DNA of 9,508 nt from a virus. Taxonomy: Duplodnaviria > Heunggongvirae > Uroviricota > Caudoviricetes. The notes under the pieces were generated by a model that saw only the letters and a list, made by a program, of their open reading frames with translations, was not told the origin of the DNA and searched no databases. A program made the translations under genes and the position numbers. How positions within the stretch are numbered: the stretch's first letter is position 1; each line of letters begins with the position of its first letter. The DNA lies in IMG/VR virus record IMGVR_UViG_2706794675_000010. One strand, 5' to 3'. Shown here in pieces: positions 243 through 9,508 of this stretch.

Positions 243-1325
243 TCATTTTCTCTGGCTGATCTTTACCGGATAACCATCCCGAAGATCAATTAAGTGCTCC
301 GGTTCAGAAGCAAACCATGCATAAGATCCCCACGCCAATTCTGGTATTGCCTTTTTAAAAGGCAGAGCACTTCTGTCCATAAATGCCGTAAGGAATGCAA
401 GATTTTTCTCGCTGAACCCAGCGTCAATAGCCAAATGAGTGAGAGTAACTTTTCGTTCCCTGTTTATAGGCCCATCTGTCGCAACTACTTCAGTGAAAAC
501 TACAAGCATGTCCGAACCCGTTCGGTCCTCTCCCAAATCAATCAAAATAATATCTGGAAGTGCTTTTGAGGCATCAATATTCAGCCCCAATGCTTTTGCC
601 AATACATCATCCTGAGCAACAACTTTATTCCCGGATTCAGACAACCAGAGCACAGTTGGATTCTTAAGAAAATTAGGAGCAAAAACTTCGATGACGGCCT
701 TAGCTATTGTACTTGACGGGCCCGGAGCTAAAGTTCTCTTCTCTCCATTTGGGAAAGTGACGACTACGGCATCAGCAGCAATCACTGCCCCTGATTTCAA
801 TAAACGCAACCTAGCAAGAGCGGCTTTGTTCAAATGATTTTCTTGCCAGGAACTTATTGCACTCAGCAGCGAATCTCCTTCAAGCCCGGCATCAAAGAGT
901 GCTGCAAAAGAGCGATTCAAACTGTAACGAGGACGAGAGGATGTGGTGGGTATACCTTTACGCTCAACAATTGCATTGCAAGGTATTAGGCCATTTTTTA
1001 TAGTTTCATCACGTATTGGCTCACGCGTATTTTCCGCATACCATGCATCAGCAGGCCTTATCTTTTGTTTAGAGAAAGTCATCTTTACCCAGCTTTCTCT
1101 GGACGCATCATCAGTAAGAGCAGCCTGCGAATCTCCCATACTTACAACCTGGCTGGGCCTTATCCATCGCCCCAGCCCCTCAACCGCACCAGCATAAAAC
1201 ATGACAAAAATTGTTTTTGCAGCTATTTCCCGAATTAAATATCCACGATTCTCAGTCCCTTCAGGGAAAATTAATTGTAATCTTTCCCGGATAACATTCA
1301 ATGGGGGAACAACAGGCAGATTCAT
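243..1325 (-). CDS. Putative restriction endonuclease-like partner of the adjacent methyltransferase (possibly BsuBI/PstI-like Type II REase); function unproven
   Basis: 360-codon ORF. Its ATG (1325-1323) overlaps the TGA stop of the upstream methyltransferase gene (ATGA at 1322-1325), with GGAG about 10 nt upstream. N-terminal part looks winged-helix-like; C-terminal part has LPDIILIDLGED...MLVVFTEVVAT, which could be a degenerate PD-(D/E)xK core but lacks a clear ExK. Family guess rests on size, context and memory, not a search. Confidence 0.6.
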   Translation of the reverse strand: MNLPVVPPLNVIRERLQLIFPEGTENRGYLIREIAAKTIFVMFYAGAVEGLGRWIRPSQVVSMGDSQAALTDDASRESWVKMTFSKQKIRPADAWYAENTREPIRDETIKNGLIPCNAIVERKGIPTTSSRPRYSLNRSFAALFDAGLEGDSLLSAISSWQENHLNKAALARLRLLKSGAVIAADAVVVTFPNGEKRTLAPGPSSTIAKAVIEVFAPNFLKNPTVLWLSESGNKVVAQDDVLAKALGLNIDASKALPDIILIDLGEDRTGSDMLVVFTEVVATDGPINRERKVTLTHLAIDAGFSEKNLAFLTAFMDRSALPFKKAIPELAWGSYAWFASEPEHLIDLRDGYPVKISQRK

Positions 1326-3154
1326 GCAATCATCACTCCATAGAAACCAGCGATAGTTCTCTCAATAATCCGTCTGTGGACGCCAGCATCAATTAACGAT
1401 TGAATCTCCATCACCTGCTCCAGAGAAGGCAACGGGATTGAATTCAATTCATAGGCCGAAACAGCAACACTTCCGCTTATACACCTGAACGCCCGATCGA
1501 CAACATGCGAATTAAGTAGCATATCAATAACATCAGGGCGAACCGCAGAGAACAATCCGTTTGAATATACAATATTAATATGGTTTTCAACTACTACGCC
1601 ACCAGTTTCATCTATAAATCCCTGAGGTAAAATTGCCGCTAAAATCCTTCTGTCCTGTTCCTTCGATGTTGTCCGCTGAACAAGCACACATTCAGATTTT
1701 GTCACAAGGAAACCCTGTTGTGGGGTTATATCGATATAGGGAACATGATTTTTTCTGTCTGCACTAAAACGAAAACCAGCTGAAGTTATTGATTCCGCCC
1801 AGACTAATGGGTAGCTATTTTTTCCTTTCGTCGTACGCAACTGCGACTTAAATCGATTCCAGACTAACTGACCTGTAGAGACTGAGTATCCCAGATCAGC
1901 TAAACGCGTAGACATCTGTTTTAATACATTAAGAAAACAGGCATCATCTTTAACGCGTGGCAAAAGCCACGTTGCTCCACCTTTTTCTATATCAACATTA
2001 CCTATTTTCTCAATTTTTGCTTTGTTCAACCCCTTAGGGACAAGTGAGGATACCTGGGCCCGAACTTTATGTTCTCCCGCCTTGAATGCTGTCAACATTG
2101 TTTCCTGGAGAACATCGTCAAAGACCCCATCCCTGTCAGTGACGAAATCAAGGGCATACGGAGTAGTTTTTTCGGTCAAAAGGGTTCGCAGCGCGGTGAA
2201 ATACTGCCCACCAAGAAAAGAAGTTGGCGTAAGAAATGCAATAACTCCTGTTTTCTCTTTAACCATGCGAACAGCTAAGTCGGTGAACAATCCATATAGA
2301 TTTGCATGACCAAATAACGAACGAGAATATTTTTCTCTCGTTTTAATATCGAGAGTGACACGTCCGTAAGGCGGATTCCCTACCACAAGATCATAACCAG
2401 AAAATTTATCTTGCTGAAGCGCATCAGCAACAATAATTGTATCTTCAGGCAATCTACGTTTTACCTTTACACATAGTGGCATTAGTACAGATTCGAGCAA
2501 TACCAAACTCATCCAAGCCGCAAATGGATCGATCTCTATCCCCTTTAAACGACGACTGATTCTCCTCAACATCCATTCAGGGGAAGACCCCTTGTCTTTT
2601 TTTAACATTCGAATGGCTACTGGTGCCAAAAATGCACCGCCACCACACGCAGGATCAATAACCGATGCATGAGAAAAATCAACACCAGACTTTTCAGCCA
2701 GGTCCAAGAGACGCGCTACCAAAGGTGGGGGGGTATAGTAAGCCCCCAATTCCGAACGGTAAGCGGATGGCAGCATTACCGTATAAATTGACCCAATCAG
2801 ATATCCAGCGTCCTCCGCCGGAAATTGAGCAATAAGCTCACCTGTTCGTTCAGCGAGCTCGCGTGCATCACATGGAATGTCTTCTATGTAAACAGTGTGC
2901 GGTACTGCCCTCATTTTAATGCTGCTTTTTTGCTTTTTTGCAAGGGTATCCCAATATGCAGCTACGATGCTGAAGCAGTATGAGCGGGCATGCATCAACC
3001 TTGACTGCCCGGTTTTGTAATTGCCCGCATAACCTTTGGCCATGGCTTTACAAGTTTGATATCTTTCCAGATTAGAAAACTCATTATCTGTAAAAAAATC
3101 AAAATGTTGCACATTCATAATGTAAAATCCTAATGTATCAAACATGCGGGCCAT
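1322..3154 (-). CDS. Gamma-class N6-adenine DNA methyltransferase (TaqI/Eco57I-like), 610 aa with C-terminal target-recognition region
   Basis: Motif X-like GAYYTPP (aa 137-143), motif I VIDPACGGGAFL (verified on DNA, minus strand of 2627-2656), motif IV GNPPYG (minus strand of 2366-2377). Order X, I, IV with about 340 aa of C-terminal extension fits gamma-class amino-methyltransferases. Start uncertain: ATG at 3154 has a weak SD; an in-frame ATG at 3118 has AGGA 9 nt upstream. Confidence 0.85.
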   Translation of the reverse strand: MARMFDTLGFYIMNVQHFDFFTDNEFSNLERYQTCKAMAKGYAGNYKTGQSRLMHARSYCFSIVAAYWDTLAKKQKSSIKMRAVPHTVYIEDIPCDARELAERTGELIAQFPAEDAGYLIGSIYTVMLPSAYRSELGAYYTPPPLVARLLDLAEKSGVDFSHASVIDPACGGGAFLAPVAIRMLKKDKGSSPEWMLRRISRRLKGIEIDPFAAWMSLVLLESVLMPLCVKVKRRLPEDTIIVADALQQDKFSGYDLVVGNPPYGRVTLDIKTREKYSRSLFGHANLYGLFTDLAVRMVKEKTGVIAFLTPTSFLGGQYFTALRTLLTEKTTPYALDFVTDRDGVFDDVLQETMLTAFKAGEHKVRAQVSSLVPKGLNKAKIEKIGNVDIEKGGATWLLPRVKDDACFLNVLKQMSTRLADLGYSVSTGQLVWNRFKSQLRTTKGKNSYPLVWAESITSAGFRFSADRKNHVPYIDITPQQGFLVTKSECVLVQRTTSKEQDRRILAAILPQGFIDETGGVVVENHINIVYSNGLFSAVRPDVIDMLLNSHVVDRAFRCISGSVAVSAYELNSIPLPSLEQVMEIQSLIDAGVHRRIIERTIAGFYGVMIA

Positions 3155-3368: not shown

Positions 3369-3725
3369 TTATTCGGGGCTATATTTTGTCACCCTGCGTA
3401 TCCGCGCTTTCGCATTACGCTCAATCTGGATTAGCTTTTCTATATTTTTTCGCCTTTCCCGCTCCTCCTGGCGCAAGAGCCTTACATCATCTGCCAGTCT
3501 GGTTTCTCTTTTCGCCACAGAGAGCATCCAGTCAAATGGCTCCACAACTGCACCGCAAATTTTACAGCGGACCTGACGCTCTTTTTCGTCAACCCGGACA
3601 GAAGCGTGATGGCAATATGGTCTTTCCGATGGCTCATAAAGAAAATTAACCTGATTACGAGGGTTATCCTCTTTTACCGGAAATAAAACAATATTGCTTA
3701 ACTCATCTTCTGGTTTTATTTCCAT
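3369..3725 (-). CDS. Hypothetical protein, 118 aa, with Cys/His cluster (zinc-ribbon-like) and basic coiled-coil-like C-terminus
   Basis: ORF with strong SD AGGAGAGGAG immediately upstream of the ATG at 3725-3723. The track's longer version starts at a GTG at 3782 directly after the upstream stop. Motif PYCHH...x17...CKIC; C-terminal tail rich in R/E/K. Confidence 0.55.
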   Translation of the reverse strand: MEIKPEDELSNIVLFPVKEDNPRNQVNFLYEPSERPYCHHASVRVDEKERQVRCKICGAVVEPFDWMLSVAKRETRLADDVRLLRQEERERRKNIEKLIQIERNAKARIRRVTKYSPE

Positions 3726-4967: not shown

Positions 4968-5470
4968 TTACTTCACAACTCCCGGAAAGCTGACATTTGA
5001 ACGCCAGCTATCCCAGTTAAACGTCACCCACCGACAACCGTTCATGGTCATGCGGTCCATAATCCTCTCACCAAGAAGCGTGCTCATTGCGGCATGATTC
5101 AGGTTTGTTAACATCCCGACACTGCACAGTGATGCTGTCCGGCGATCAATTATCTGGTGCAATACCACCTGCTCGTTTTTCGTCTCCCGCTGAATGCCTA
5201 TTTCATCCAGGACCAGCAAATCAACCCCGCAAAGCTCCTGTAAAAATTTTTCACCGGATTTGCCGTTGTCGTAGCTGTCATGCAACACGCTCATGACATC
5301 AGACTCGGTGACGATAATCACGCTGCGCCCCTTCGCCATCAGCCGGTTACCCATCGCCGCTGCAAGGTGATTTTTCCCGGTGCCGGTTTTACCGCTGAAC
5401 ACAAAATTCGTGCACCCGGTCATCAGTTCGTCAGCTATGGATTTGGCCTGGCTCAGCGCGTATTTTTGCC
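4968..5470 (-). CDS. DnaC-like helicase loader / IstB-like AAA+ ATPase (lambda P-position replication protein); 5' end missing in the N-run gap
   Basis: Walker A FSGKTGTGKN verified on the minus strand of about 5371-5400; Walker B LLVLDEIG. About 167 residues are visible, so the N-terminal portion lies in the gap. TAA stop at 4968-4970. Confidence 0.85.
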
Positions 5471-5748
5471 NNNNNNNNNNNNNNNNNNNNNNNNNNNNNN
5501 NNNNNNNNNNNNNNNNNNNNNNNNNNNNNNNNNNNNNNNNNNNNNNNNNNNNNNNNNNNNNNNNNNNNNNNNNNNNNNNNNNNNNNNNNNNNNNNNNNNN
5601 NNNNNNNNNNNNNNNNNNNNNNNNNNNNNNNNNNNNNNNNNNNNNNNNNNNNNNNNNNNNNNNNNNNNNNNNNNNNNNNNNNNNNNNNNNNNNNNNNNNN
5701 NNNNNNNNNNNNNNNNNNNNNNNNNNNNNNNNNNNNNNNNNNNNNNNN
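5471..5748. other. Run of 278 N (assembly gap or masked sequence)
   Basis: Ns directly visible from 5471 to 5748. The gap removes the 3' end of the O-like gene and the 5' end of the DnaC-like gene. Track ORFs that are mostly X across this span are artefacts. Confidence 0.99.
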
Positions 5749-6591
5749 CACCCCCTCGCGCAATCTGGCCTTCCAGGCACTGAATGCGGATTTCTTCGGG
5801 TTTGCCCCGGCACGCAACGGGTATTCCCGCCAGACCTGTTCGAACACATCCGGATAATCCACTCGTCCCACAGGCTGCCCGGTGTTTTCCGGGGCTACCC
5901 GATCGGCTTCCCGCTGAATGGCGGAATCGGCTTCAGGCTGCTGCAGTTGGAGTGATTGCTCCGGCCTTGCGGTCATCACCTGCTGCACAGCGCCCGAATC
6001 GGCTTTCAGCGCATACGCTGAATCGGCTTCCGGTGTCGAGCCTGCTGGCTGACCAGGATTGACGGTCTGAACATCCCCTGCCTGGTTCGTGGCGTTTTTT
6101 ACGCCATGGACCATAGTGTTTTGATCTTCTTTATCTGTATCTTTATCTGTATCTGTCGTGACTCGTCGTGACATGTGCGTGACATTTCGTGACGCGCCGT
6201 GACAATCGCCATTTTGTTCCCGCTTTCTTTCCCTCTCTCGCTGCGCCCTCTTGCGCTCTGCAGGAGATTTTGCGGTTTGCGAAATATTGCCGTTGTCCTC
6301 TTTAAGCACCTGGCGTTTTTCCCATCCAGTGATTAAATCACCATCAAGTACCCGCCCCTGCATCGTCTGCAAAATTGAATCAATTACCTCTTCTGTCACG
6401 TCGAGCGCACTTGCCAAATCTTCTGTCGTGACATCAATGTGACCTCGCGTGACATTTCGTGACGCGCTCACCAGGAGGTGGATATACACTGCCATCACTG
6501 TTGCAATTGGCTGCCCTGACACCCTGGCAATTGTTCGCCACTTAGGGTCATTTGGCATGTCATGCCATAATCTGAGCCAGGCGTTAGCCAT
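5749..6591 (-). CDS. Replication initiator (lambda O-like / Rac YdaU-like replisome organiser); 3' end missing in the gap
   Basis: ATG at 6591-6589 with SD GAGGTGA 5 nt upstream (track start is a GTG at 6597). Occupies the O position between the CII-like and DnaC-like genes. Two iteron arrays lie inside the coding sequence, as for lambda ori inside O. Frame is continuous to the gap edge at 5749. Confidence 0.75.
6128..6203. repeat. Candidate replication origin, array 1: tandem 12-bp AT-rich repeat followed by five CGTGAC iterons
   Basis: TCTTTATCTGTA occurs twice in tandem (6128-6139, 6140-6151). CGTGAC recurs at 6157, 6167, 6178, 6188 and 6198, i.e. spacings of 10, 11, 10, 10 bp, about one helical turn. 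Confidence 0.6.
6395..6467. repeat. Candidate replication origin, array 2: (C/T)GTGAC iterons plus one inverted copy
   Basis: CGTGAC at 6427, 6448, 6458 and TGTGAC at 6438 (spacings 11, 10, 10); inverted GTCACG at 6395-6400. The 21-mer GCGTGACATTTCGTGACGCGC is identical at 6177-6197 and 6447-6467. Confidence 0.55.
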
Positions 6592-6662
6592 ACTCACCTC
6601 TTCTGATACCGAATCTTTTTACTCACGAGTTGCCGGGAGCGATTCGATATGGCTATTGTCAG

Positions 6663-7088
6663 TCAATGTACTGCCACAGCATTTCCTGCCGGGCCACCAC
6701 GGTTCATCTGATTGAAACCGGCGATTGCCACTGCGACAAAATCATCAGCGTCTCTCACCAGTCGTTCATGCGTCTCCACCAGTTCCCGAAAATAAGCTGA
6801 ACTGTGGCTGCGCATTCGAGCCACCAGCGGAGGTGGCATTGCCCTTTCGATCGCAGGTAACAACGCCTGAATTTTTTCAACAGCGTCAGGGGTGTCTTTA
6901 TCCAGCCAACGGAAAATCTTTTGGGTGTTGAGATAAAGCGTGTTGTGCTTGCTGTCGTTATGCAGAACCGGAAACGTCATTCCCAGTTCGAAATAAACCC
7001 TGGTTATTTCAGCTGCCGGAACTTTTTCACCGTCCGGATGCGCCCAGGCTTTCATCGCCATGCGGATGTGTTCATGCTTGATTTTCAT
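6663..7088 (-). CDS. YdaT-like protein (CII-position regulator of Rac-type prophages)
   Basis: 141-aa ORF beginning MKIKHEHI..., which I remember as the N-terminus of the E. coli Rac-prophage YdaT family. Its ATG (7088-7086) overlaps the TGA stop of the Cro-like gene (ATGA). Sits between the Cro-like and O-like genes. Confidence 0.65.
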   Translation of the reverse strand: MKIKHEHIRMAMKAWAHPDGEKVPAAEITRVYFELGMTFPVLHNDSKHNTLYLNTQKIFRWLDKDTPDAVEKIQALLPAIERAMPPPLVARMRSHSSAYFRELVETHERLVRDADDFVAVAIAGFNQMNRGGPAGNAVAVH

Positions 7089-7348
7089 GAATCAACCCCC
7101 GCCGATGGTTGTGTGTTAGCCTGAAACTCAGCAGGCAAGCCGTCAGTTGGGTTGGGGTAGGTTTTACTGTCAATCTCATGTGGGGTCACCACCCATCCCG
7201 TTGCTTCACACCAACGTAATATTTTTTCTCCTGTAAGTTTTGCACGCCCCGTTATAACGTGGCTGACCATCCCTTGGGATGCGCCAACAATCTCAGCAAA
7301 TGAACTCTGGGTTATATGAAAATGATGCAAATATTCTCCAAGATTCAT
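7085..7348 (-). CDS. Cro-like HTH transcriptional regulator (YdaS-like)
   Basis: HTH segment ITQSSFAEIVGASQGMVSHVITGRAKLTGEKI. Divergent from the cI-like gene across an operator-bearing intergenic region. ATG at 7348-7346 chosen; the track's longer ORF starts at a TTG at 7375. Confidence 0.7.
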   Translation of the reverse strand: MNLGEYLHHFHITQSSFAEIVGASQGMVSHVITGRAKLTGEKILRWCEATGWVVTPHEIDSKTYPNPTDGLPAEFQANTQPSAGVDS

Positions 7349-7384
7349 AATCCGCCCTATGTGATGTGTTACCAATGCATAATT

Positions 7385-7425
7385 AATAGCACTGTTATTT
7401 TTAAAAGTAAATAGTGATACTATTT
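7385..7425. promoter_or_regulatory. OR-like operator pair and divergent promoter region between the Cro-like and cI-like genes
   Basis: Perfect 17-bp palindrome AAATAGTGATACTATTT (7409-7425) and related AATAGCACTGTTATT (7385-7399), centres 25 bp apart. Candidate minus-strand promoter with -35 TTTACT and -10 TATTAA overlapping these sites (low confidence). Confidence 0.5.
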
Positions 7426-7459
7426 CAAAGTGATTAGCAATCTTATTAGAATTGGATGT

Positions 7460-7960
7460 ATGAAAAGAAAATCATTGTCAGACACCGACCTCAACGCCGC
7501 CAGAAGACTGAAAGAAATCTGGATGGCAAAGAAATCTCAGTTGGGATTGACTCAGGAACGTGCGGCGGAAATTATGGGGTTTTCAACACAAGGGGCGGTA
7601 AGTCACTACCTAAATGGTCAAACCCCACTAAACCTTGAGGCTGTTCTAAAGTTTGCTGGCTTACTGAAAGTTCCCCCTGAGTCAATCAGGCCAGACATGG
7701 TAGATTTGCTGCAAATTGCAAGGATGTATTGTCGAGAACCACAGCAAGATAACATAGTCGCATTACCAGCAGACACAGAACAAACAGAGGATGAACTACC
7801 GTTTGCCGTAGAGCCGATGGAACGAGATTTAATCCATACGTTCAGAGCTTTTCCGAAAGAAGATCAAGAACACATGCTTCAGGAGATGAAAGATAAAAAA
7901 GAATCAATGGATCGTACGGTTGCGCGGTGGTTAGCTGCACAAAAAGGCCGTCGCGCCTAA
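7460..7960 (+). CDS. cI-like XRE-family HTH transcriptional regulator (PaaR-like) without a recognisable S24 peptidase domain
   Basis: HTH segment LTQERAAEIMGFSTQGAVSHYLNGQTPLNLEAV. ATG at 7460 (track ORF starts at a GTG at 7430). Transcribed divergently from the Cro-like gene and followed on the same strand by a toxin-antitoxin pair, as in the paaR-paaA-parE arrangement I recall from E. coli O157:H7 prophages. Confidence 0.75.
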   Translation: MKRKSLSDTDLNAARRLKEIWMAKKSQLGLTQERAAEIMGFSTQGAVSHYLNGQTPLNLEAVLKFAGLLKVPPESIRPDMVDLLQIARMYCREPQQDNIVALPADTEQTEDELPFAVEPMERDLIHTFRAFPKEDQEHMLQEMKDKKESMDRTVARWLAAQKGRRA

Positions 7961-7979
7961 ATCAGAGGAGATATGTAAA

Positions 7980-8174
7980 ATGAGTACAGTCCTTTCCCCA
8001 ATGGTTTCAGAATTTGAGACAGTTGAGCAAGAAAATAGTTACAACGAATGGCTGCGGGCCAAAGTAGCAGCAAGCCTCGCGGATCCCCGCCCGGCGATTC
8101 CGCATGATGAGGTAATGGCGGAAATGGAACAAATTATTGCCCAAATTGCTGCTGCAACTCACAGAGGTGAATAA
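7980..8174 (+). CDS. Small antitoxin (PaaA-like) of a ParE-family toxin
   Basis: 64-aa ORF with GAGGAG 9 nt upstream. Its TAA stop overlaps the ATG of the downstream toxin gene (TAATG at 8172-8176). Small, acidic protein. Family named from context and memory. Confidence 0.7.
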   Translation: MSTVLSPMVSEFETVEQENSYNEWLRAKVAASLADPRPAIPHDEVMAEMEQIIAQIAAATHRGE

Positions 8175-8464
8175 TGTTACCCGTTTTATGGCTACCATCT
8201 GCTCGTGATGATTTGCGCCAGATCGTAGCCTACATAGCTAAAGAAAATCCCGCGGCAGCACGCAGAATGAAAATTCGAATTGAAACATCCGTTTTGCCGC
8301 TCACAGAGCATCCTTACCTGTATCCTCCAAGCGAGCGAGTTCTTGGTCTTCGTGAAATTGTAACTCATCCTAACTACATCATCCTTTACCGAGTAACAGC
8401 ATCAAGCATAGAAGTAGTAAATATTGTGCATTCTCGAAGACAGTATCCAGGCAAAAACAGTTAA
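8174..8464 (+). CDS. ParE/RelE-superfamily toxin (ParE-like)
   Basis: 96 aa with the typical ParE pattern: MLPVLW...ARDDLRQIVAYIAKENPAAA...HPYLYPPSERVLGLREIVTHPNYIILYRV...IEVVNIVHSRR. SD AGAGGTGA upstream; translationally coupled to the antitoxin. Confidence 0.85.
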   Translation: MLPVLWLPSARDDLRQIVAYIAKENPAAARRMKIRIETSVLPLTEHPYLYPPSERVLGLREIVTHPNYIILYRVTASSIEVVNIVHSRRQYPGKNS

Positions 8465-8480
8465 TTATTCCCGCCGACAG

Positions 8481-8503
8481 AACCACCTTAGGGTGGTTTT
8501 TTC
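8481..8503 (+). terminator. Rho-independent terminator after the toxin gene
   Basis: AACCACC-TTAG-GGTGGTT forms a 7-bp stem with a 4-nt loop and runs into TTTTTT (8497-8502), 17 nt after the parE-like stop. Confidence 0.6.
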
Positions 8504-8520
8504 TTGCCCCAACAAAAAAC

Positions 8521-8562
8521 AATAGCGATGCTATTTACATCAAAAAAAATAATGATGCTATT
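8521..8562. promoter_or_regulatory. OL-like operator pair (same motif as OR), candidate early-left promoter region
   Basis: Perfect palindrome AATAGCGATGCTATT (8521-8535) and AATAATGATGCTATT (8548-8562), centres 27 bp apart. Both match the half-site consensus AATAGY-N3-RCTATT seen at 7385-7425. Candidate -35 TTTACA at 8534-8539, with only weak -10 candidates. Confidence 0.45.
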
Positions 8563-8743
8563 GTTTCAGGCGTCAACCCACCCCGCCCCACAGAATGCAG
8601 GGCAATACTTCGAGTTACCAGACAGTGGTCAGGGGTTAAGTAGCCAGCCCGAGGCGTAAGAACATGACGGCAGGGTTCAATCTTTAACTATGCAGCAGGT
8701 TTTTTGTTCCGCCACCCCGGCGTTAAGGGGAAATGAGGTCAGC

Positions 8744-8896
8744 ATGGATACTATCGATCTTGGCAACAACGAATCTCTGGTGTGCGGCGTGTTCCCTAAC
8801 CAGGATGGAACGTTTACCGCCATGACGTATACCAAAAGCAAAACGTTTAAAACCGAATCTGGCGCGCGTTGCTGGTTAGCCAGAAACACTGACTGA
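8744..8896 (+). CDS. Hypothetical small protein, 50 aa
   Basis: ATG at 8744 with GAGG about 6 nt upstream (the track's longer ORF from 8690 lacks an SD). First gene downstream of the OL-like sites; not arginine-rich, so not obviously N-like. Confidence 0.4.
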   Translation: MDTIDLGNNESLVCGVFPNQDGTFTAMTYTKSKTFKTESGARCWLARNTD

Positions 8897-8907
8897 TGAG
8901 GCTGACG

Positions 8908-9273
8908 ATGGAATTTAAAGATTTACCGTCTGATGTACAGAAAACAGCAGCTCATACATTGCATTCTGTGCTGCGAGAAATCGGGAAAGATATTGCAAGC
9001 GAGCCAGCAAAAGATCTGGCCCGGAAAATCAAGACCGCTTTCGTTGAGCTTTATAATGTTGGCACTGACTCTGAAACTGTCGAGACCAAGACCGTAAGTT
9101 CACCAATATTCTCACTTGAGCCAAGCGTATTATCAGGTGAAATATGCACCGAGATTTCCAGCGAACTGCTTCCGGTAATACGAGAAGCAATTCGCCGTCG
9201 CGGTTTGGATGGAAGTTATGATCATGACGTTCTGCAAGTTCTCAGGACAATGGTGACTTCACTGGGGATTTGA
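8908..9273 (+). CDS. Hypothetical protein, 121 aa
   Basis: ATG at 8908 with GAGG 6 nt upstream; an alternative ATG at 8896 overlaps the upstream stop (TGATG). Acidic protein, no family recognised. Confidence 0.5.
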   Translation: MEFKDLPSDVQKTAAHTLHSVLREIGKDIASEPAKDLARKIKTAFVELYNVGTDSETVETKTVSSPIFSLEPSVLSGEICTEISSELLPVIREAIRRRGLDGSYDHDVLQVLRTMVTSLGI

Positions 9274-9508
9274 TCCCTGCGTCCTCTAAGCTTTTGATAT
9301 AGCGGTCCTCCAAGAAGCGGTAAATTTTGTCGAAATCATCTTTTCCCTCTGGTTTATTCAGAGGATTACAGGACCCGTAAGTAGCGGCATACATTTCAAC
9401 CGTTTGGTAATGACTCCAACTTATTGATAGTGTTTTATGTTCAGATAATGCCCGATGACTTTGTCATGCAGCTCCACCGATTTTGAGAACGACAGCGACT
9501 TCCGTCCC

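Follow-up and report, generated by a model that had tools for sequence, protein, structure and literature searches.

Prophage CP-933P of Escherichia coli O157:H7 carries a paaR2-paaA2-parE2 / ydaS-ydaT region, for which Hallez 2010 is reportedly among the sources, and it is the closest described counterpart of the locus reported here: a set of palindromic, operator-like sites around a repressor and toxin-antitoxin operon in a 9508-nucleotide stretch of DNA from a Caudoviricetes virus (IMG/VR record IMGVR_UViG_2706794675_000010), referred to below as the window. In CP-933P, PaaR2 is the analogue of lambda CI, YdaS that of Cro and YdaT that of CII (Jurenas et al. 2021, PMC8630535). PaaR2 and YdaS footprint a 97-bp intergenic region that holds the early right promoter (PR) and the leaderless repressor maintenance promoter (PRM), and an early left promoter (PL) with similar operators just past parE2 is repressed by both proteins; the evidence comprises electrophoretic mobility shift assays, DNase I footprints, gfp fusions to PR, PRM and PL, and detection of leaderless paaR2 mRNA by rapid amplification of 5' cDNA ends (PMC8630535). 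Four inverted repeats plus three ‘operators’ were described in the right operator region (OR) and three in the left operator region (OL), and PaaA has no DNA-binding domain (PMC8630535). The paaA2-parE2 pair replaces rexAB, and YdaT binds DNA at the operator TTGATT-N6-AATCAA (Prolic-Kalinsek et al. 2023, PMC9986795).

The window is a Rac/Qin/CP-933P-type lambdoid prophage immunity region, with its closest protein matches in Shigella sonnei and E. coli. The Qin (dicA-dicC/dicB) and Rac (racR-ydaS-ydaT) prophages of E. coli K-12 share with it, judging by annotation names, YdaT- or YdaS-type early genes and a repressor without a cleavage domain. A further likeness to them is the ydfA-ydfB-ydfC...dicB series past PL in intact relatives of the window, where ydfA is followed by ydfB, ydfC, rha and dicB. 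DicA and RacR are different repressors with operators different from those of the window, and we know of no toxin-antitoxin cargo in the corresponding slot of K-12 Qin or Rac. In lambda, OR2 is placed at about -42/-43 relative to PRM, and from there CI activates that promoter.

Four sites in the window in all likelihood constitute OR and OL of a lambda-like prophage switch, and we put the probability that they are the operators of a 166-amino-acid repressor and its Cro-like partner at about 0.86. Although the architecture is known, the operator sequence, the chimeric repressor (lambda-CI-type N-terminal domain, PaaR-type C-terminal domain) and the Cro partner constitute a new immunity type; we found no mention of any of the three in the literature searched.

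Sites and predicted promoters of the immunity region

From left to right, the region comprises the genes for YdaT and the Cro-like protein, OR, the genes for the repressor, PaaA and ParE, a terminator, OL with PL, and ydfA. The Cro-like and repressor genes are divergent across a gap of 111 bp. The sites, the promoters that they overlap and the regulator and cargo genes are as follows.

7385-7399, no strand: OR1, AATAGCACTGTTATT, one mismatch (T for C, right half), over the PR -10
7410-7424, no strand: OR2, AATAGTGATACTATT, exact AATAGY-N3-RCTATT, over the PR -35 and abutting the PRM -35
7434-7448, no strand: OR3, weak, ATTAGCAATCTTATT, three mismatches, over the PRM -10
8521-8535, no strand: OL2, AATAGCGATGCTATT, exact consensus, 3' end over the PL -35, position and overlap conserved in relatives
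8548-8562, no strand: OL1, AATAATGATGCTATT, one mismatch (A for G, left half), 3' end forming the PL extended -10
7383-7411, minus strand: putative PR, -35 TTTACT (7411-7406), 17-nt spacer, TG (7391-7390), -10 TATTAA (7388-7383)
7424-7452, plus strand: predicted PRM, TTCAAA (7424-7429), 17 nt, TAGAAT (7447-7452), promoter scan score 9/12, conserved in relatives
8534-8564, plus strand: putative PL, -35 TTTACA (8534-8539), 19-nt spacer, TG (8556-8557), -10 TATTGT (8559-8564)
7085-7348, minus strand: Cro analogue, 87 amino acids, helix-turn-helix (HTH) with SQGMVSH, Pfam HTH_3 (E = 4e-4)
7460-7960, plus strand: immunity repressor, 166 amino acids, lambda-CI-type N-terminal domain, disordered linker, PaaR-type C-terminal helical hairpin
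7980-8174, plus strand: PaaA-family antitoxin, 64 amino acids, no DNA-binding domain, Pfam PaaA2 PF21217 (E = 3e-23), PDB 3ZBE PaaA2 (E = 1.4e-23)
8174-8464, plus strand: ParE-family toxin, 96 amino acids, Pfam ParE_toxin PF05016 (E = 2e-17), PDB 5CW7 ParE2 (E = 7e-37)
8479-8506, plus strand: intrinsic terminator of the repressor-PaaA-ParE operon, 9-bp hairpin (8479-8500) and U-tract, conserved in relatives

The original prediction placed two palindromic sites between the divergent regulators and two beyond the toxin-antitoxin operon, and all four can be read directly from the sequence. It held that every site fits AATAGY-N3-RCTATT, which is too strong: two do so exactly, while the other two, OR1 and OL1, carry one mismatch each, which in both alters the same base of the promoter-distal half (AATAAY). 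The description of two sites as perfect palindromes applies to their arms (7 bp at 7409-7425, 6 bp at 8521-8535) and not to the GAT centre, which is not self-complementary. This GAT does occur in three of the four sites in the window; in relatives the central triplet varies freely, which shows that GAT is not conserved. The spacings of 25 and 27 bp between site starts were given correctly, and with OR3 included the three sites of OR stand at steps of 25 and 24 bp. A scan of the 9508 bp returned only these four sites even when two mismatches were allowed (OR3, with three, lies beyond that threshold). Shuffled windows gave an expectation of 0.00 exact sites and 0.06 with at most one mismatch, and none of 200 shuffles yielded four. 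For a complete carrier genome, calculation puts chance single sites with at most one mismatch at about 8 per Mb. A search for a third OL site found none, leaving OL with two.

The manner in which sites and promoter elements overlap is kept in relatives at PR and PL alike, O2 running into a TTGACA/TTTACA -35 and O1 into a TGnTATT(GT/AA) extended -10. More distant relatives have TTGAC as the PR -35 at the same place, and the relatives' PL reads TTGACA/TTTACA-17-TATTGT, with a 17-nt spacer in L001. PL reads outward from the repressor operon into ydfA and is overlapped by the distal pair of sites. OR2 is centred at -43 of PRM. The repressor ATG lies 8 nt past the PRM -10 and has no Shine-Dalgarno sequence, so the PRM mRNA is probably leaderless. 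The terminator placed before the distal pair by the original prediction is real: it was missed by a consensus terminator scan and confirmed by folding (-15.1 kcal/mol, z = -3.3). Since the toxin-antitoxin pair begins 19 bp past the repressor stop codon with no terminator between, it is probably co-transcribed with the repressor.

The spacer of PL contains an A tract (8542-8549) that differs in length among loci 99-100% identical to one another: A5 in L035, A6 in L001, L031, L033 and L036, A8 in the window, L028, L029 and L032, and A9 in L034. Its length sets the PL spacer at 16, 17, 19 or 20 nt and the OL2-OL1 spacing at 24 to 28 bp. The 27-bp spacing is therefore specific to the window allele, because A6, found in most near-identical loci, gives 25 bp. 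In cryptic prophages such variation could represent either decay of PL or a switch that acts on it by slippage. Downstream, heteroimmune prophages agree at ~97% over the PL leader (8573-8743, ~170 nt ahead of ydfA), a higher conservation than that of the coding DNA beside it. Its folding is not significant (z = +0.8), and Rfam applied to 6500-9508 gave only a sub-threshold antisense match; the leader could be a nut-like or other regulatory element.

The proposed likeness to lambda, with the toxin-antitoxin pair in the rexAB slot, agrees with gene order and orientation (cro<-OR->cI-rexAB-(terminator)-OL/PL->). The window has a divergent repressor and cro with a multipartite operator over back-to-back promoters, and a second cluster of the same sequence on an outward PL. 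It also shares with lambda a homologous repressor N-terminal domain, a tripartite OR with steps of ~24-25 bp, O1 on the PR -10 and O2 on the PR -35, OR2 at ~-42/-43 of PRM, a repressor mRNA that is probably leaderless in the window too, and cargo genes co-transcribed behind the repressor with OL/PL beyond. In contrast to lambda, the operators are 15 bp long and of another sequence, the repressor C-terminal domain is a short PaaR-type hairpin and not an S24/LexA-like cleavable domain, and the cargo is a ParE-type toxin-antitoxin pair instead of RexAB. As this architecture had already been published for CP-933P, the interpretation in the original prediction is a rediscovery; that prior publication was absent from it, as were OR3, the probably leaderless PRM and the non-cleavable PaaR-type C-terminal domain.

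Association of the motif with the repressor DNA-binding domain

The N-terminal domain of the repressor is genuinely homologous to the DNA-binding domain of lambda CI. It matches 1LMB with 39-40% identity (phmmer E = 3e-9), the AlphaFold model superposes on 3KZ3 with a template modelling (TM) score of 0.93 and a root mean square deviation of 1.0 A (Foldseek), and the residues aligned to lambda E34 and D38 are both E and thus acidic. In the predicted model a disordered linker (residues 92-112) is followed by a two-helix hairpin. No S24/LexA-type autocleavage domain was detected in the repressor, for which Pfam detects the HTH alone; the switch is therefore not expected to be directly RecA-cleavable, or induced via RecA-stimulated cleavage. 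Alignment with PaaR2 is confined to the C-terminal 44 residues (52% identity, E = 4e-15), and the N-terminal DNA-binding domains do not align. Across homologues, one PaaR-type C-terminal domain is combined with three different HTH domains. Some relatives have tandem two-HTH repressors of 244-255 amino acids (L006 4001-4735, L009 4001-4768; P0018, P0020), in which a lambda-CI-like HTH and one of the type found in L108, a second O157:H7 PaaR locus, precede the PaaR C-terminal domain. We looked for the corresponding ACTGT...ACAGT (B-type) dyads near these genes and found only AATAGY-type operators.

Loci with the same repressor N-terminal domain (HTH-A) were gathered from genomes, metagenomes and viral contigs and scanned with at most one mismatch. 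The positive set comprised 75 loci (617 kb) with an N-terminal domain at least 59% identical, and the control set 48 loci without HTH-A (416 kb), namely 45 found via the paaR2 start sequence, L108 and two others. All 276 matches in the HTH-A loci (276/276) fall either upstream of the repressor ATG or in a cluster just past the repressor operon. The 48 control loci, mostly of CP-933P type, gave two solitary matches and no paired sites. OR centres in relatives lie at -68, -43 and -19/-20 relative to the ATG, that of OR1 at -68 (-66 to -69) in the positive-set loci where it scores within one mismatch. Where the window has the weak site at 7434-7448, OR3 is distinct in relatives: it reads ATTAGTAAAACTATT or ATTAGCAATACTATT (one mismatch) and stops 12 bp short of the ATG, so we regard OR as tripartite. 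The distal cluster is found 457 to 2927 bp from the ATG, a distance that follows the cargo: ~457-540 bp without cargo, ~910-930 bp with two-HTH repressors, ~1050-1060 bp with PaaA/ParE, 1436 bp with HigBA and 2927 bp with HipA_2 and DUF3037.

The outer AATA/TATT positions carry ~2 bits each and the central N3 ~0.5 bit; position 5 of the half-site is G in 55% and position 6 is Y. Between near-identical loci, OR2 differs by symmetric Y/R changes that retain the dyad. The recognition helix is TQGAVSHYLN in all but one of the loci at least 59% identical, the other (L086) having TQAAVSHYLG, and Cro-like homologues, present at every HTH-A repressor locus down to 43% identity, keep (S/T)QG(M/Y/F)(V/I)SH. 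At lower repressor identity, operator drift (ATTAGC, ATTACCGCCGGTA) is seen in some loci whose helix has changed, and others lack any match. Among INPHARED phages, none has a repressor N-terminal domain above 60% identity; the nearest isolated phages, with the Shiga toxin (Stx) 2 phage cI and the Rac-SA53 ‘dicA’ at 52-57%, have half-sites drifted to ATTAGC/AATAGT. Across the loci compared, these patterns show the motif following the repressor DNA-binding domain and no other feature.

A second line of evidence comes from heteroimmune prophages. We aligned the window with CP-933P (L109, found via the published paaR2 primer), L108 and an O104:H4 relative (L002). Among the three immunity types the flanks are ~95% identical, yet the block from ~7097, just right of the YdaT operator, to ~8573, just after the PL -10, cannot be aligned between types. 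Each type has operators of its own: AATAGY-N3-RCTATT in the window, ACTGT-N9/10-ACAGT dyads at OR and OL of L108, and GTTTAGT repeats in CP-933P. On these alignments, the exchange of operators, repressor DNA-binding domain and Cro as one unit is the classical signature of an immunity region. Both other immunity types also have a recognition helix common to repressor and Cro, which in L108 reads (V/A)(T/A)QQTV.QW.

Compared with CP-933P, the window has the same order (ydaT, cro-like, OR, repressor, PaaA, ParE, OL/PL), homologous PaaA and ParE, a YdaT 77% identical over 141 amino acids with an identical operator, a repressor 52% identical in its C-terminal 44 residues and likewise lacking a peptidase domain, a PRM seemingly leaderless in both, and a PL leader ~97% identical. 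The repressor N-terminal DNA-binding domain, of lambda-CI type in the window, is unrelated. The same holds for the Cro-like protein, which occupies the ydaS position and has no similarity to CP-933P YdaS. CP-933P has 18-bp palindromes with half-site GTTTAGTAA in place of AATAGY-N3-RCTATT, and the window has three OR and two OL sites. L108 resembles the window in architecture and PaaR C-terminal domain but has a third kind of HTH (‘HTH-B’) and a single long ACTGT-N9/10-ACAGT dyad per promoter, one across each of its PR- and PL-type promoters (2507-2525 and 3541-3560). By elimination, it is the CP-933M homologue mentioned in PMC8630535. A literature search on paaR1/CP-933M and on PaaR2 crystallisation turned up nothing useful.

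Competing explanations and the predicted switch

Several observations weigh against reading the sites as operators shared by the repressor and Cro in a lambda-type switch. For this immunity type, the reading comes from sequence comparison, and because many loci are near-identical, the independent evidence is nearer to ~35 distinct OR sequences than to 75 loci. The CP-933P precedent covers architecture and not recognition, since PaaR2 shares only the C-terminal 44 residues and the operators are unrelated. With its three mismatches, OR3 may be non-functional in this lineage, and OL has two sites, not three as in lambda. The consensus promoter scan called PRM but neither PR nor PL, which it missed because the PR -10 ends in A and the PL spacer is 19 nt; this suboptimal spacer and the truncation of the PL operon by IS1 make PL possibly weak or dead in the window. 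Finally, repressor and Cro-like protein both co-vary with the motif, so that co-variation cannot separate them. Only one regulator, for example the Cro-like (YdaS-type) protein, might use these sites while the other recognises a different element in the same regions, or the reverse, and the two overlapping repeat families of CP-933P, whose exact sequences are not assignable to PaaR2 versus YdaS (PMC8630535), could be taken in its favour. We consider such a division unlikely, given that the two proteins share (S/T)QG(A/M)VSH, that tblastn aligns their HTHs, and that no second conserved repeat family was seen in the aligned OR or OL regions. The repressor and Cro of lambda, 434 and P22 also share operators.

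The repeats might instead reflect AT-rich promoter architecture, with shared -35 and -10 elements or UP-like elements of duplicated promoters, or chance. Each site does overlap a promoter hexamer, PR and PL have TTTAC and TATT in common, and a relaxed paired-pattern search of viral contigs was weakly informative: among the matches listed, 59 of 119 adjoin a homologous repressor and 60 of 119 have no detected repressor homologue, most of the latter with a G+C fraction below 0.35, as expected of chance matches in AT-rich contigs. This explanation is nevertheless very improbable, as the promoter-distal half-sites are as conserved as those overlapping hexamers, OR3 and OR2 keep the dyad despite their different relation to the promoters, symmetric Y/R changes preserve it, and the motif is absent from heteroimmune prophages with homologous flanks and similar promoters. 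Autoregulation by PaaA-ParE, in the manner of a classical type II system, would suit sites that bracket the toxin-antitoxin operon, and most type II antitoxins do autoregulate via palindromic operators. The comparative data effectively refute it here. PaaA has no DNA-binding domain and matches only the 33-residue PaaA2 model (see also PMC8630535), the same sites occur in relatives with HigBA, HipA_2 or no cargo, and PaaA/ParE loci with other repressor types are without the motif. The CII-like YdaT, a DNA-binding tetramer encoded in the same region, can be dismissed with similar assurance: its footprinted site TTGATT-N6-AATCAA is separately present at 7078-7095, and the 77% identity of YdaT in the window to that of CP-933P contrasts with wholly different operators. 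Binding of YdaT at the four sites is thus refuted by sequence, its own conserved operator lying elsewhere.

The best reading remains a lambda-type bistable switch, which the comparisons support and in which binding is predicted for this immunity type. Repressor dimers would bind AATA(G/a)Y-N3-R(C/t)TATT via the lambda-CI-type HTH with recognition helix TQGAVSHYLN. Because OR1 covers the -10 of PR and OR2 its -35, their joint occupancy would block PR and silence Cro, YdaT and the replication genes, and occupancy of OL1 and OL2 would likewise block PL, which is predicted to serve ydfA...dicB-type genes. Repressor at OR2 (-43) may activate the probably leaderless PRM; placed in this way, it would sustain its own synthesis together with that of PaaA and ParE. 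Since PaaA has no DNA-binding domain, the toxin-antitoxin pair would depend on the prophage regulators. OR3, on the PRM -10, may mediate negative autoregulation or be the preferred Cro site, and the Cro-like protein, with its near-identical recognition motif SQGMVSH, would compete for the same sites. YdaT at 7078-7095 may drive a promoter of the repressor establishment (PRE) type, as in CP-933P. By analogy to PaaR2 octamers, the C-terminal hairpin probably oligomerises and could loop OR to OL over ~1.1 kb.

Neighbouring genes, cargo and implications

Beyond the sites and the operon they flank, the window contains the following features.

6663-7088, minus strand: ydaT-type gene, encoding the CII analogue and second in the PR operon, Pfam YdaT_toxin (E = 5e-9)
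7078-7095, no strand: YdaT operator TTGATTTTCATGAATCAA in the PRE region, at the left border of the immunity cassette, exact TTGATT-N6-AATCAA, single match in the window
8744-8896, plus strand: ydfA (DUF1391), first gene of the PL operon, Pfam DUF1391 (E = 1e-28)

The YdaT operator, at the cro/ydaT junction, corresponds to the OM site footprinted in CP-933P. It is unchanged in three of the four aligned prophages, which span all three immunity types, and has AATCAC in L002. The published F-PRE primer matches exactly at 7060-7079. On the other side, the PL operon is cut short behind an open reading frame (ORF) of 121 amino acids (8908-9273) by an IS1 end (9406-9508), which matches IS1 copies at 99-100% identity. 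The early-right region encodes, on the minus strand, a BsuBI/PstI-type restriction endonuclease (243-1325) and an Eco57I/N6-type methyltransferase (1322-3154); a related Stx phage has a BsuBI-type restriction-modification system directly 3' of cI. A masked run at ~5470-5760, translated as X, breaks two overlapping replication genes, the O-like ORF 5431-6597 and the DnaC/P-like ORF 4968-5849, so that neither reads through.

The slot behind the repressor gene is occupied in relatives by HigB/HigA or by HipA_2 with DUF3037, or is empty (L003 4612-5339; L006 4787-6360; L009 4768-5018), and the OL pair always lies just beyond it. A more extended scenario joins several of these elements. Domain shuffling would have given rise to an undescribed specificity, whose repressor, a lambda-CI domain fused to the PaaR oligomerisation hairpin, would escape SOS cleavage and bridge the three sites of OR and the two of OL by a loop. 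The position behind its gene would be a hot spot that generally receives addiction or defence cargo (PaaA/ParE, HigBA, HipA-like or empty), and in cryptic prophages the A tract (A5, A6, A8, A9) would act as a mutational on/off switch for a potentially lethal early-left (kil/dicB-type) operon. Taken as a whole, we regard this combination as conceivable but doubtful.

With this locus the PaaR-type prophage switches gain a third or fourth immunity specificity, for which a predicted operator, AATA(G/a)Y-N3-R(C/t)TATT, a promoter map and a recognition helix can be put to direct test. At least three unrelated DNA-binding domains occur joined to the PaaR C-terminal domain, each accompanied by a Cro and operators of its own, and the toxin-antitoxin pair appears as one of several interchangeable cargos under predicted repressor control. 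These features should help to annotate the immunity groups of Escherichia and Shigella prophages. While known principles are unchanged, the finding bears on how toxin-antitoxin modules lose their own autoregulation.

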